DNA of 64,000 nucleotides from an uncultured Glaciecola sp. (GCA_964643575.1 CAZXTD010000004.1:2016-66015), one strand, 5' to 3'; shown: positions 23,551 to 28,475, counted from the stretch's first letter. Notes: generated by a model from the letters alone, not told the origin. Numbers and translations are program-made.

Positions 23551-24561
23551 ATGGCTCTTTTCCTTCCAAGCCGCCCTCGCAGGCTGCGCCGTACTCAAGC
23601 ATTGCGTAATTTAGTTAGCGAACATACCTTAAGCCCAGCAGACTTAATCTACCCAATGTTTGTTATTCCGGGTGATAACAAAACTGAAGTAATCGCGTCA
23701 ATGCCTGATGTGCACCGCTATAGTATCGACTTGTTGATTAAAGAAGTTGCAGAATGTATTGCGCTTGGAATTGTGCATTTTGCATTATTTCCTGTGGTGG
23801 AAGGCAGTAAAAAGTCTTTGGATGCAGCAGAAGCGTATAACCCAGACGGCCTTGCTCAGCGAGCAACTCGTGCACTAAAACAGGAATTTGGCGACGATAT
23901 TAGCGTGATCACTGATGTTGCCTTAGACCCATTTACCGAACACGGGCAAGATGGCCTAATAGACGAACAAGGATACGTACTTAACGACGAAACAATCGAA
24001 GTATTGGTTAAACAAGCTTTATCACATGCACAAGCAGGCGCTGACATTGTTGCTCCCAGCGACATGATGGATGGCAGAATAGGGGCCATAAGAGATGCCC
24101 TTGAAGATGCGGCTTTCACCAATACTTGCATTATGGCTTATGCCGCCAAGTATGCCTCGAGCTACTACGGGCCATTTAGAGACGCAGTCGGCTCAGCGGG
24201 CAACATCAAAGGCGGTAATAAAAAAAGCTATCAAATGAACCCCGCCAACAGCGACGAAGCAATGACCGAAATCGCGCTAGACCTGCAAGAGGGTGCTGAC
24301 ATGGTCATGGTTAAACCGGGCATGCCTTATTTAGACATTGTACAGCGCTGTAAAAGCGAGTTTAAAGTGCCTACCTTTGCGTACCAAGTAAGCGGCGAGT
24401 ATGCAATGCACCAAGCCGCGTTTGCGAATGGGTGGCTTAATAAGGACCAAGTTGTGCTCGAATCTTTGTTGGCATTTAAACGCGCGGGTGCAGATGGTAT
24501 TTTGACCTATTTTGCGAAGTATGCAGCAAAAGCGATCAAAGGGTCAGAGTCTTTGAAATAG
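23551..24561 (+). CDS. hemB: Porphobilinogen synthase (ALA dehydratase), Cys-free metal-site type
   Basis: [43 protein letters not shown]. Confidence 0.98.
24534..24558 (+). repeat. REP-like hairpin repeat, copy 1 (inside the hemB 3' end)
   Basis: GATCAAAGGGTCAGAGTCTTTGAAA, with TCAAAG/CTTTGA stem; exact reverse complement of 28416-28440. Confidence 0.9.
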
Positions 24562-24710
24562 CCTAGCTCGTGACTAGTTTCTGTCTGAAAACCCTGGTCC
24601 ATTAATCTACCGTTAAAAGCCTACCGATTATGCAGTTTTTACGTAATTTAAGACACCAAACTACCCTTAAGTTCTAGAAAGTGCAAATCAACGGGGTTTG
24701 CTGTTTGTAG

Positions 24711-25877
24711 TCAGCGCGTCAACATACTGCGCCAAATCTCGCCCCATCCAGGCTCTTTGCCAAAAAGAGTGATATTAGCTCTGAATATTCTAAAAGCGTA
24801 CATGCGAACAACCAGAATACCGAGTGCTAAAGAGATTAAAGAGACAATCACTTGCCAAGTAGGAACGTCCATTGATGCCAATCGCATTGGCATAAAGCTT
24901 ACCGATGTTAATGGAAACATCGACAAAATAGTGGCGACTTGCCCGTTTGGTTCACCTAGCACAAAAAACACTAAGATTACGGGTACCATCGGCAAAAACA
25001 TTACGCCGGTTTTACCGCTATGGTTTATGTCGTCGATAGTGGCTGAAAAGCCCACAAAGACATAGTTCCACAATACAATGCCCAAAGTACAAAACAGCAG
25101 CACTTGAATAAGTAACATGGGCGTTATGCCTGCTAGCATATTTGCTTCTTGAGTAATTGCAGCGATAACCAAAAATATCACCAGTGAGAATAGCGCGGTC
25201 GTAAATACGCTTTTTAAGCTCGACAAACAAAGCCCTAAGGTTTTACCATCTACCCATTGTTGATGAGACAAACAAGTTAGTAATTGCTCGGTAACGCGCT
25301 GCTGTTTTTCTTGGGTGACTGAACTTAAACATAAACCGAAGCTCGTAAAGACTGCAATAGCACTGAGTATTGCGGCCATTAGTCCTAATATTTGCGTATC
25401 TGCGCCTGAGTCCGCTTTGGCTTTGCTGATAAAAGAGAAGTCGATAGGATTGAGTAGGGTATCAAGTTGAGACTGCGATAACGACAAGGAGTTGAGAAGC
25501 TCAAGCTGGTAAAAATCGCTTAAGTCTTGTTCTAGCTCATCGTGCCATTTACTTTGCTGCAATGCATACAAAGTGAAGGTGTTTTCTTCTTGTTTTAGAA
25601 TAGCGTCTAGCTCGTTTTTATCTAAAATTTCAAAAAGCTGTGACTGGCTTAACTCGGCACTAATTTCACTTAGCGAAAATTTATCGCCCATGGGCGCACT
25701 CAATTCGCCGCCTACAATACCAATCTCAAAACGCGCTTGCTGACTCGTTTGATCCCAAACCTTTACGGCAAAAATTACAAGGTAGATGGCGAGCATAGCC
25801 GCGTAACCAATCAACTCCTGCTTCCATTTGAAGTTGCGCATAAATTCCCATTTTGCGACTAATACTGTTTTATTCAT
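24711..25877 (-). CDS. ABC-2 type permease (NatB/YhaP-like)
   Basis: VAKWEF N-terminus, QEKQQRVTEQLL (E-K..R..E.LL motif), PLTSVSFMPMRL; start overlaps the ATPase stop. Confidence 0.88.
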   Translation of the reverse strand: MNKTVLVAKWEFMRNFKWKQELIGYAAMLAIYLVIFAVKVWDQTSQQARFEIGIVGGELSAPMGDKFSLSEISAELSQSQLFEILDKNELDAILKQEENTFTLYALQQSKWHDELEQDLSDFYQLELLNSLSLSQSQLDTLLNPIDFSFISKAKADSGADTQILGLMAAILSAIAVFTSFGLCLSSVTQEKQQRVTEQLLTCLSHQQWVDGKTLGLCLSSLKSVFTTALFSLVIFLVIAAITQEANMLAGITPMLLIQVLLFCTLGIVLWNYVFVGFSATIDDINHSGKTGVMFLPMVPVILVFFVLGEPNGQVATILSMFPLTSVSFMPMRLASMDVPTWQVIVSLISLALGILVVRMYAFRIFRANITLFGKEPGWGEIWRSMLTR

Positions 25878-26794
25878 TATTGTGCTTCCTGCAGGCTGTT
25901 GAGGTAGATATCGTGTAGGGTTGCTTGAGAGGTTTGTAATGACGCAACTTTATGTTCTTTAAGTATTTTTTGAAGCACCTCAGGTAAAGATGCCGATAAT
26001 TCGAGGTGCAATACAACGGTGCTTTCATTTTTTTGTTCTGTTGCCAAAACGCCGCTGTAGCCGGCAAAAACTTCTTGATTGTTTGGTGAGTCAAAACTCA
26101 AGGTAATACTGCTGCCAATGCCCGATTGTTTGCAAATATTCTGGATATCGCCATAGAGGGCGGCACTTCCTTTGTTCATTAATAAGAAGCGGTCGGCGAG
26201 CTTTTCGACTAGGGACATTTGATGAGCGCTTAAAATAATCGTTGTGCCTTGAGCTTTAAGTTCTGCTAAAAAGTCGATGACTTTTTCCTGGTTGATGGGA
26301 TCAAGTCCTGAAAACGGCTCATCTAAAAACACAATACTCGGACTATGCAATATAGCCGAAATCAACTGTACTTTTTGTTGATTACCCTTCGATAAGGTTT
26401 TTAAGGGATCGTTTACGCGTTCAATTAAGTCGAAACGTTCAAGCCAATCTTTAGCTGCGCCAAGCGCTTTAGACTTGCTCATATCTTTGAGCTGGCCCAT
26501 ATAAACCAAGGTTTTTAAAATAGACGTTTCTTGAAACAAGCCTCGTTCTTCTGGCAAGTAGCCAAAATCACGGCTTTGAAGCTGCCCTGTGCTATTGCCT
26601 GCAGCATCAGTAAAACAAATTTCGCCTTCGTCAGCTTGGGTCAAACCAATTAACATACGAATAGTAGACGATTTGCCTGCACCGTTGGGCCCTAGCATGG
26701 CAAAGATTTCACCTTTATGCACATCAAAGGATAAGTCATTTACCGCAACAACCGTGCTGTATTTTTTCACAATATTCGAAACGCTTACCTGCAT
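25877..26794 (-). CDS. ABC transporter ATP-binding protein (NatA/YhaQ-like)
   Basis: Walker A GPNGAGKS, signature LSKGNQQ, Walker B VFLDEPFSGLDP, H-loop SAH. Confidence 0.93.
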   Translation of the reverse strand: MQVSVSNIVKKYSTVVAVNDLSFDVHKGEIFAMLGPNGAGKSSTIRMLIGLTQADEGEICFTDAAGNSTGQLQSRDFGYLPEERGLFQETSILKTLVYMGQLKDMSKSKALGAAKDWLERFDLIERVNDPLKTLSKGNQQKVQLISAILHSPSIVFLDEPFSGLDPINQEKVIDFLAELKAQGTTIILSAHQMSLVEKLADRFLLMNKGSAALYGDIQNICKQSGIGSSITLSFDSPNNQEVFAGYSGVLATEQKNESTVVLHLELSASLPEVLQKILKEHKVASLQTSQATLHDIYLNSLQEAQ

Positions 26795-26854
26795 ACGAAA
26801 TATATTCCTTTTTGATATTTAAAGTCAGATGTTATCTATATACGGCTCATTTTT

Positions 26855-26878
26855 ATCGAAGGGTCAGAGTCCTTGAAA
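26855..26878 (+). repeat. REP-like hairpin repeat, copy 2
   Basis: ATCGAAGGGTCAGAGTCCTTGAAA; two substitutions relative to copy 1. Confidence 0.85.
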
Positions 26879-26961
26879 GCTTAATTCAATTCTAAGGTAC
26901 AGTTTTAATCAAAGGTTGATTTATTACACTTGAGCATTGAGCACTATTTAAAGGATTAGTT

Positions 26962-27705: not shown

Positions 27706-27723
27706 AAGAGAAATTAGTTTTGG

Positions 27724-27766
27724 TTCAAAGACTCTGACCCTTTGATAAAGACTCTGACCCTTTGAT
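27724..27766 (-). repeat. Tandem REP-like repeats, copies 3-4
   Basis: TTCAAAGACTCTGACCCTTTGAT (27724-27746) directly followed by AAAGACTCTGACCCTTTGAT (27747-27766). Confidence 0.92.
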
Positions 27767-27801
27767 ACTGAGCCGCTTTAAACGGTCAGCTATATATCAA
27801 T

Positions 27802-28380
27802 CTATCGAAGTTCAAAATAGTAAACATCACTCGAGATCTGTGTAAAGGTGTCGTAGTTTACGAGGTATTGATTAATTAGCTCAGTACTTGTATTTGTAAC
27901 TAATACTCCCTCAAAGCCATGCATTACACTACTCCCCGTCTGAAACCAGTGTGCGCTTTTATCAGCATCGTAATAATATTGCTTAAAGCCGTATGAGTTT
28001 AAACTGTTTAAATATCGGCTAAGGGTTTCAAATGAAATATTTACTTGCTCAGGATATTTGTTGGCTAATTCATCCCAACTTGAAAACTCAATGCTTGACG
28101 CGCTTTCGAGGTATTGTTGCACGAAGCCACCTTGTGGAGCGCTTCCATATGTCATGTTTTTAAAATCGATAATTATGCTATTTAAGATGATGACGTCATT
28201 TTTCATATCGTCAATTTGCACAATAGAATGGGATTGAAGCTCTTTGGAAAGCTGACGAATGTTATCTAATACTTCGTTTTGCCTATAGTAGGCTTCGTCA
28301 AATTTTGGCGCACACGCAGTAATAAAAAGTATAGTAAATACAATGGATAAGAGCTTACCTAGCAGCCTTTTTTCGAGCAT
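27802..28380 (-). CDS. Hypothetical lipoprotein
   Basis: Basic N-terminus, hydrophobic core, lipobox ITA|C, AAGGA RBS; no recognisable domain. Confidence 0.8.
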   Translation of the reverse strand: MLEKRLLGKLLSIVFTILFITACAPKFDEAYYRQNEVLDNIRQLSKELQSHSIVQIDDMKNDVIILNSIIIDFKNMTYGSAPQGGFVQQYLESASSIEFSSWDELANKYPEQVNISFETLSRYLNSLNSYGFKQYYYDADKSAHWFQTGSSVMHGFEGVLVTNTSTELINQYLVNYDTFTQISSDVYYFELR

Positions 28381-28406
28381 TGTTTTACAGTTCCTTTTGT
28401 TAAGCT

Positions 28407-28475
28407 CTTTGATTGTTTCAAAGACTCTGACCCTTTGATCGTTTCAAAGACTCTAAAGACTCTGACCCTTTGATC
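28407..28475 (-). repeat. Tandem REP-like repeats, copies 5-7 plus a remnant
   Basis: CTTTGAT remnant (28407-28413); full TTTCAAAGACTCTGACCCTTTGATC (28416-28440); partial TTTCAAAGACTCT (28442-28454); AAAGACTCTGACCCTTTGATC (28455-28475). Confidence 0.92.

Follow-up and report, generated by a model that had tools for sequence, protein, structure and literature searches.

A probable TIRtron within a 3.95-kb insertion between hemB and panC of an uncultured Glaciecola sp.

A 64,000-nucleotide stretch of DNA from an uncultured Glaciecola sp. (GCA_964643575.1 CAZXTD010000004.1:2016-66015; referred to below as the window) carries, between the core genes hemB and panC, a gene for a Y1 HUH nuclease that resembles the REP-associated tyrosine transposases (RAYTs; REP, repetitive extragenic palindromic sequence), together with short repeats and three genes of other kinds. 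A preliminary description of this locus suggested that the repeats may delimit gene-sized modules added outward from the RAYT, i.e., that they may form an integron-like system for the capture or shuffling of genes. The locus raises the question of whether the nuclease and its repeats assembled the block in this way or form a unit of a known kind with other genes lying beside it. Our analysis indicates that it is probably an ordinary TIRtron (a REPtron-like unit bounded by terminal inverted repeats [TIRs]) within a small accessory insertion, and that the ABC transporter gene pair and the lipoprotein gene are passengers, not captured or shuffled cassettes.

On the evidence of its PanC homologues, the window belongs to a Glaciecola-like clade. 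In three independent relatives (PanC identity of 85%, 83%, and 82%; loci L018 to L023), hemB and panC are directly adjacent and convergent, with a spacing of 19 to 92 nt, and these three empty sites contain no ABC genes, RAYT, lipoprotein gene, or repeat. The native HemB tails of the relatives end in ..YFAKYAAGLLAAKIPATK, ..YFAKAAAKLLQEK, and ..YFAKDVAKLL. The tail in the window differs from these and is repeat encoded; the last ~8 to 11 codons and the stop codon of hemB come from repeat copy 1 and lie outside the ALAD domain. The adjacency of the two genes in the relatives and their native hemB tails therefore mark the entire segment from 24528 to 28484 as derived, and by this sequence comparison the 3.95 kb is one lineage-specific insertion between the convergent core genes. 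The placement between core genes given in the preliminary description was thus borne out by the empty sites, with repeats at both junctions. Open reading frame (ORF) and Pfam analyses likewise confirmed the gene order as first described: a plus-strand repeat, the ABC-2 permease and ABC ATPase genes, a second plus-strand repeat, the Y1_Tnp gene, two minus-strand repeats, the lipoprotein-like ORF, and two further minus-strand repeats with a partial copy between them, all flanked by hemB and panC. The features are as follows.

23551-24561, plus strand: hemB (ALAD), the left core flank (Pfam ALAD, E = 3e-138, domain residues 7 to 327)
24528-24558, plus strand: repeat copy 1 (TIR/REP-like), of the "dispersed type" with a GCGATC extension, at the left end of the insertion
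24711-25877, minus strand: ABC-2 family permease, a passenger (Pfam PF12698)
25877-26794, minus strand: ABC ATPase, DrrA-like, a passenger (Pfam PF00005 and PF13732; TIGR01188 below its cut-off)
26852-26878, plus strand: repeat copy 2, variant TATCGAAGGGTCAGAGTCCTTGAAA, left RAYT-proximal, 91 nt upstream of the RAYT start and kept in L009
26962-27705, plus strand: TIRYT/RAYT-like Y1 HUH gene, 247 amino acids (Pfam Y1_Tnp, 7.8e-15)
27723-27766, minus strand: repeat copies 3 and 4, in tandem with a 20-nt period, right RAYT-proximal, with AGGGTCAG 28 nt downstream of the RAYT
27802-28380, minus strand: lipoprotein-like ORF of 192 amino acids, a passenger (lipobox ..FITAC; no Pfam or NCBIfam match)
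28413-28444 (repeat copy 5), 28442-28454 (partial copy, 13 nt), and 28451-28484 (repeat copy 6), minus strand: right end of the insertion
28485-29333, minus strand: panC, the right core flank (Pfam Pantoate_ligase, 3e-104)

The identity of the nuclease was examined at the levels of profile, motif, and fold. The NCBIfam model REP_Tyr_transpos (NF047646, an equivalog of the E. coli type, subclass 2.2) scores 67.1 bits, which is under its 80-bit cut-off but still makes it the best-scoring model, and the IS200 model of NCBIfam (cut-off of 55 bits) gives 22 bits. Among 27 aligned homologues, N59-H60-V61-H62, W99-E100, Y120-I-E...P125, and W139-S140-S141 are invariant (some nearly so). The tyrosine motif is YIELNP (residues 120 to 125), which carries the class 2 signature Y---NP, and the C-terminal tail contains a conserved G223-G-D225..S228, with helices modelled at residues 167 to 239; a Pfam scan of residues 145 to 247 gave no helix-turn-helix match even at an E value of ≤10. 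The AlphaFold2 model of the protein (pLDDT = 84, pTM = 0.80) has as its best Foldseek match in the PDB the chain 4ER8_A of the E. coli RAYT-REP complex (E = 2.5e-7, TMt = 0.74); ISDra2 and IS608 TnpA come next. The fold search was needed because a search of the PDB by sequence alone found nothing at an E value of ≤0.01. The Pfam match, the motifs, and the fold agree with the first reading of this gene as that of a RAYT-like Y1 HUH enzyme.

Members of TnpA-Y1 subclass 2.1, which corresponds to Group 1 of Bertels et al., carry NH[VYF]H, W[EQ], and YIELNP or Y[IV]HLNP and have a median length of 238 amino acids (PMC6006769, Table 1), and Quentin et al. equate this subclass with the "TIRYTs" of Di Nocera et al. 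(PMC6006769). A C-terminal tail with an SS motif and an HTH-like distal domain is also typical of the subclass. By its motifs, its length of 247 amino acids, and its predicted fold, the window gene is assigned to subclass 2.1, i.e., it is a TIRYT. The protein family is very large, with more than 8000 matches, mostly unnamed or annotated as "transposase," in marine Gammaproteobacteria, and subclass 2.1 homologues are also found on plasmids.

The repeat unit, GCGATCAAAGGGTCAGAGTCTTTGAAA, is ~26 to 31 nt in length and is present as six full copies and one partial copy within 24528-28484. At one mismatch or fewer, the motif GGGTCAGAGTC occurs at 24541(+), 26861(+), 27730(-), 27750(-), 28423(-), and 28458(-), i.e., at six sites against 0.28 expected by chance, a number reached in 0 of 100 shuffles. 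The 22-mer CAAAGGGTCAGAGTCTTTGAAA at three mismatches or fewer recovers the identical six sites (expectation of 0.00), and zero further copies were found when the other 60 kb of the window was searched with looser motifs. The copies to the left are on the plus strand and those to the right on the minus strand, with the Y1 HUH gene in the middle, and the outermost copies pair as inverted repeats of 27 to 29 nt that are 96 to 97% complementary. The preliminary description was therefore right that the repeats are real, confined to the island within the 64 kb, and arranged in opposite orientations around the HUH gene. It gave the repeat as an 11-mer hairpin, and here the unit proved longer; the predicted fold of a single copy, a 6-bp stem with a 9-nt loop, reaches -3.5 and -1.3 kcal/mol (z-scores of -1.15 and +0.23), so that individual copies fold no better than shuffles and are weakly supported as hairpins.

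Across the family, the stem is kept. In 290 distinct members, six base pairs surround a 9-nt loop, GGTCAGRKT, and the pairing beats partner shuffles at six of six positions, in a sample that was partly picked with a pattern fixing most of the stem. The second stem position is A-T in the window and G-C in most relatives. The window repeat AGGGTCAG matches seven of the eight positions of the TIR motif GGGGWSAS, GGGGTCAG in the related loci L012, L014, and L146 matches all eight, and the counterpart in the more distant locus L148 is GGGGACAG. The canonical REP tetranucleotide GT[AG]G, which stands at the foot of a 20- to 40-nt imperfect palindrome, is not present in the unit (neither GTAG nor GTGG occurs), and Rfam, tRNA, and terminator scans of the region gave no match. 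An 11-nt direct repeat, ATTAGTTTTGG, was also observed at 26955-26965, where it overlaps the RAYT start codon, and at 27713-27723, after the stop codon and beside repeat copy 3; it is mostly kept in L009 and is not evident in L012 or L014.

Relatives of the RAYT with 70%, 68%, and 66% identity are found at unrelated loci, namely, between metF and an unknown gene, between OsmC and a PEP-CTERM-like gene, and between msh pilus and ssb genes, and a related unit, ATCAAGGGGTCAGGTTCYTTGA, flanks every one of them in inverted copies. At 16 nonredundant RAYT loci (40 to 70% identity), the left copies are on the plus strand in 30 of 30 cases and the right copies on the minus strand in 27 of 29, and this inward orientation holds whichever way the RAYT gene itself points. 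TIRYT genes have been described as flanked by terminal inverted repeats with GGGGWSAS, the unit being named the TIRtron, and the TIRs occur as singles, dimers, and clusters in families of moderate abundance (PMC3733652). Since inward repeats are the norm across these 16 loci and in the published REPtron and TIRtron geometry (PMC3733652, PMC6006769, PMC3333891), the arrangement in which all repeats face the RAYT is not special to the window. The repeats of the window are supported as the cognate flanking repeats of the Y1 enzyme.

Compared with the published TIRtrons (Di Nocera 2013, PMC3733652; Quentin 2018, PMC6006769; RAYT Group 1 in Bertels 2017, PMC5581495), the window has the same ~240-amino-acid Y1 protein with NHVH, W-E, YIELNP, and apparently the C-terminal tail, the same single gene with GGGGWSAS terminal inverted repeats in families of low to moderate copy number (singles, dimers, and clusters), and the same patchy, nonsyntenic distribution with some plasmid members. 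It differs in having extra repeats past the adjacent genes and in being a bounded 3.95-kb block with three passenger genes that is not present in relatives; moreover, a 6-bp stem and a 9-nt loop are conserved in the window family, and for subclass 2.1, by contrast, no REP-like structures were reported by Quentin et al. (PMC6006769). The E. coli REPtron (tnpA-REP/yafM with flanking bacterial interspersed mosaic elements; Nunvar 2010; Ton-Hoang 2012, PMC3333891; 4ER8) shares the Y1 HUH fold, a gene bordered by inverted cognate repeats whose copy number varies per side, and a chromosomal site that does not vary inside a lineage, while lineages differ in whether they have the unit. On the other hand, the REPtron enzyme belongs to subclass 2.2 with DHLH and YIHYNP, and the window protein falls under the equivalog cut-off; the REPs of E. 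coli are GTAG-tagged imperfect palindromes of 30 to 40 nt that number in the hundreds, and the unit itself encloses no passenger genes. As in REPIN-RAYT systems (Bertels & Rainey 2011, PMC3116915, PMC3337134), inverted doublets and RAYT-less mini elements occur in the repeat family of the window, but in the window itself the copies stand alone or in tandems of one orientation, not as doublets, and they are few locally.

The preliminary description took scattering of the repeat as an ordinary REP, unrelated to cargo boundaries, as grounds for its refutation, and such scattering was seen in a scan of metagenomes with ATCAARGGGTCAGRKTCYTTGA. At least 120 repeat loci were found, and among the 120 loci listed, 11 have a RAYT homologue and 109 have none, so that at the family level the repeat is scattered like an ordinary REP. 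Tandem arrays or REPIN-like plus/minus pairs spaced by ~34 nt are found at many of the loci listed, and some contigs carry repeat copies in almost every intergenic gap. At the extremes of density, one RAYT in L041 (4177-5961) has 12 copies to its left and 6 to its right, a 9-kb stretch of L113 contains 16 repeat cores spread over at least six sites, and 14 kb of L063 contains 8. The same holds, at what looks to be a low copy number, for the population studied here. The metagenomes of a sister lineage (runs X5 to X8) contain at least four further repeat loci on short contigs with depths like that of the genome, and in addition one REP-8nt-REP dimer (X5/X6), and the metagenomes of the source itself (X1/X2) contain at least one further repeat locus; contig matching detects only copies sharing ≥~30 nt, and these counts are lower bounds. 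The 30- to 31-mer of copy 1 is also present beside other flanks in runs X1, X2, and X5 to X8, and the 30-mer at 28455-28484 is present at a second locus in X5 to X8. An exact 18-mer scan of 185,579 species genomes, which did not include the source species, gave seven single matches, near chance level, one identical 26-nt unit was found in a Glaciecola metagenome-assembled genome, and 2.9 million viral contigs gave 0 matches.

The block is stable in close lineages. In the sister lineage (L009 to L011; runs X5 to X8), which is ~8% diverged, it lies at identical hemB and panC junctions, each with ~92% nucleotide identity, and gene content and order are the same, with 87 to 94% nucleotide identity per gene (6 to 13% divergence); the only difference lies in the repeat arrays, with one copy versus two after the RAYT. 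The layout of the window recurs in L147, a strain from another sample that is 99.7% identical. Its RAYT gene carries a 20-nt frameshifting deletion (equivalent to 27605-27624 of the window) that puts the final ~33 residues out of frame, and the conserved HGGDRRS region at the C terminus, with its invariant G-G-D..S, is lost; this could be enzyme decay or an assembly error. No joint skipping the island was found in the contigs of the source metagenomes (runs X1 to X4). A joint from 24556 to 28418 in X5/X6 was considered as an island-less form and rejected: its shorter side is 23 nt and it contains an 8-nt palindromic linker, and it is therefore a repeat dimer and not evidence of excision. Both lineages share the hemB-panC site, and because site and order are the same in the diverged sister lineage, the block has been inherited vertically since before the lineages split. 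The best explanation is that it was gained once, before the split of the two sampled lineages, and that only repeat copy number changed afterwards. Given this constancy and the lack of island-skipping joints, gene shuffling, as first proposed, is not supported, and where different cargo between hemB and panC had been envisaged, the sister lineage carries the same genes. The hemB gene of the sister lineage has the same repeat-derived tail with a different stop (..SLKGPTS*). Runs X5 to X8 are labelled "aquatic viral metagenome" and hold the sister lineage at a depth of 6 to 8, likely through carry-over of cellular DNA.

The likeness to integrons (IntI, attI/attC, Pc) is superficial and consists in repeats with hairpin potential between gene-sized blocks near a recombinase-like gene whose product would act on structures in single-stranded DNA. 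IntI, attI, and attC are absent, and the only recombinase-like gene of the window is the Y1 HUH gene; the repeats are 26 to 31 nt of one sequence; the genes have upstream regions of their own, are distributed over both strands, and are not co-oriented promoterless cassettes; and there is no cassette variation between lineages. Integron-like capture is thus not upheld. The IS200/IS605 elements have a Y1 HUH enzyme acting on subterminal hairpins in single-stranded DNA, as the window enzyme would. They differ in the tyrosine motif (Y---Q versus Y---NP in the window), in having ends on the same strand where those of the window are inverted, and in being multicopy identical elements, often with tnpB, whereas the window has one copy in 64 kb and no tnpB.

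As a TIRtron, the unit would consist of a single-copy Y1 HUH nuclease of subclass 2.1 and inward-facing cognate stem-loop repeats, whose GGGTCAG loop matches the GGGGWSAS-type motif. Judging from E. coli TnpA-REP and IS608 TnpA, the enzyme would bind the repeat as a hairpin on single-stranded DNA and may then cut and rejoin DNA beside it. The repeats would multiply locally, giving tandems and extra copies at the nearest gene ends and in intergenic gaps, with occasional seeding elsewhere. What the comparisons show directly is the anatomy of the locus, the family to which it belongs, the empty sites, its stability, and the dispersal of the repeats; the activity on the window repeats and the mode of entry of the block are inferred.

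Several observations weigh against so ordinary an element. Both junctions of the insertion are repeat copies, inverted with respect to each other, that touch or overlap the core genes with zero spacer, copy 6 running up to the panC stop codon; simple later "spill-over" of repeats does not predict this, which hints that the repeats took part in the insertion. At L146 (8700-9850), a ~100-nt duplicate of the RAYT 3' end and repeat lies 1 kb downstream of the intact RAYT, and between the two lies a gene for a 234-amino-acid secreted PEP-CTERM-like protein whose last codons (KSRGQVL*) are repeat encoded. At L012 (9560-9720; L013, 2711), a RAYT-less mini TIRtron made up of a left repeat, ~100 nt resembling the RAYT leader, and two right repeats is located 1.8 kb from an intact RAYT, past a 392-amino-acid gene. 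The P. aeruginosa record L148 (NZ_CP116719.1, "plasmid unnamed1," 1-24299) contains three TIRYT genes that share 41% identity with that of the window. Small toxin/immunity-like modules (deaminase, EndoU, glutamine deamidase, and nonspecific endonuclease), located downstream of three identical CdiA-like (DUF637) fragments, are separated there by the repeat ATAAAGGGGACAGATTTATTTTCCCTACTCTAAT, present in ~21 copies, and by ~10 mini elements of ~190 nt without a RAYT. The record, which is linear, could be an assembly from a chromosomal region that varies, and a literature search for RAYT-type elements in orphan arrays of contact-dependent inhibition loci returned nothing specific. These loci are evidence for the local duplication of TIRtron ends and for the enclosure of genes between them, not for mobilization of those genes. 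Given the junction repeats and the loci with RAYT ends duplicated around a neighboring gene, the earlier reading is therefore not simply wrong. A permuted arrangement was also seen at L005 (4612-6272), where an N-terminally truncated RAYT, an inverted repeat copy, 600 nt, a forward copy, and an N-terminal RAYT fragment follow one another, which suggests adjacent partial TIRtron copies.

The strongest alternative, which we nonetheless consider unlikely, is a weaker form of that earlier reading in which the Y1 enzyme took a repeat further out as an "end," or breaks in the repeat array were repaired with foreign DNA, so that neighboring genes became enclosed; the 3.95-kb block would have entered the hemB-panC site as an enlarged TIRtron or grown outward from the RAYT. 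The IS91/ISCR elements offer a conceptual model for this, with an HUH enzyme that mobilizes flanking genes by end-skipping, but their enzymes are Y2 or other HUH transposases from a family unrelated to that of the window gene, and their ends are oriIS and terIS without inverted repeats. The three empty sites, the inverted repeats exactly at both junctions with replacement of the hemB tail, and the presence of a repeat in each intergenic gap of the block and none beyond it in the 64 kb all fit this alternative, as do the gene enclosed at L146, the mini TIRtron past a neighboring gene at L012, the L148 array, the plasmid-borne homologues, and a further locus, L127, where facing repeats 1.6 kb apart enclose two secreted-protein genes without a RAYT. 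Nevertheless, a single insertion event is all that was seen, with no second site, other order, or partial island, and the block is unchanged across 6 to 13% divergence with no joints in the source metagenomes. Chance alone would give the matching orientation at the two distal sites in 1 of 4 cases, and bracketing of genes is expected in repeat-rich genomes such as L113 and L063, which have repeats in most gaps. Finally, E. coli REPtrons do not transpose as units (PMC3333891), and single-strand excision of 3.9 kb between inverted ends is without precedent for Y1 enzymes. The general form of the idea, in which TIRYTs enclose and move neighboring genes between terminal repeats, the hemB-panC block is a cargo-carrying TIRtron, and L148-type arrays arise by the same process, appears more doubtful still; it would be a route to the assembly of gene modules by an HUH enzyme.

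Host recombination is an improbable origin of the block. A repeat dimer would already have been present between hemB and panC, and a repeat-bearing fragment would have integrated through the ~30-nt repeats with no involvement of the nuclease. The outer copies are of the dispersed type with the GCGATC extension, like the solitary copies elsewhere in the population, a REP-8nt-REP dimer does occur in the sister-lineage metagenome, and GC content is slightly lower in the RAYT and lipoprotein part (36.5 to 40%, versus 46 to 48% in hemB and panC, a mild difference that is not decisive). However, repeats are missing from all three empty sites, a length of ~30 nt offers little for RecA-dependent exchange, and the donor locus was not found.

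Least probable of all is that the repeats are host regulatory elements (terminators or mRNA stabilizers) selected at gene ends, with the Y1 gene incidental or decaying: copies do stand right after stop codons (hemB and panC, and metF in L012) and directly after a terminator at another locus, and the C-terminal frameshift in the 99.7% identical strain would fit decay, but single copies are weakly folded, lack a T-run, are not called as terminators, and have no Rfam match, and the strict inverted layout around RAYT genes in many taxa ties the repeats to the enzyme.

The passenger status of the ABC pair is supported by its homologues. The ABC permease is 96% identical in the sister lineage and at most 64% identical elsewhere, and the homologues at 64% and 59% are ATPase-permease pairs at unrelated loci without a RAYT or repeats. 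An ancestral presence of the ABC pair between hemB and panC, to be seen in more distant relatives, was considered and rejected; in L024 and L025 the pair sits elsewhere. The lipoprotein family is rare, with 16 cluster representatives at an E value of ≤1e-3 among 1.84 billion proteins, and the lipoprotein gene was rejected as part of a conserved RAYT unit, being unrelated to the RAYT-adjacent genes in L012 and L146. Outside the block, the window contains tandem paralogous gene pairs at 41765-43398 and 59777-61116 (spacing of 1317 and ~1075 nt, with stretches that are 71 to 83% identical) and, upstream of hemB, two neighboring 7TMR-DISM/GGDEF paralogues (21163/23096), which relatives have too.

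The locus is thus a well-bounded example, from an uncultured marine Glaciecola-like bacterium, of a kind of element that is already known, to which it makes modest additions. In this clade of subclass 2.1 enzymes, the "TIR" is a short, conserved stem-loop whose copies are dispersed as REP- and REPIN-like families; these copies can overwrite the last codons of neighboring genes without harm, as in hemB and the PEP-CTERM-like gene of L146; and an entire repeat-bounded block with passengers is present or absent between close relatives. If it were true that the repeat ends moved the block, this would be the first RAYT-type enzyme to mobilize genes and not only noncoding repeats, which would bear on what "domesticated" RAYTs do.

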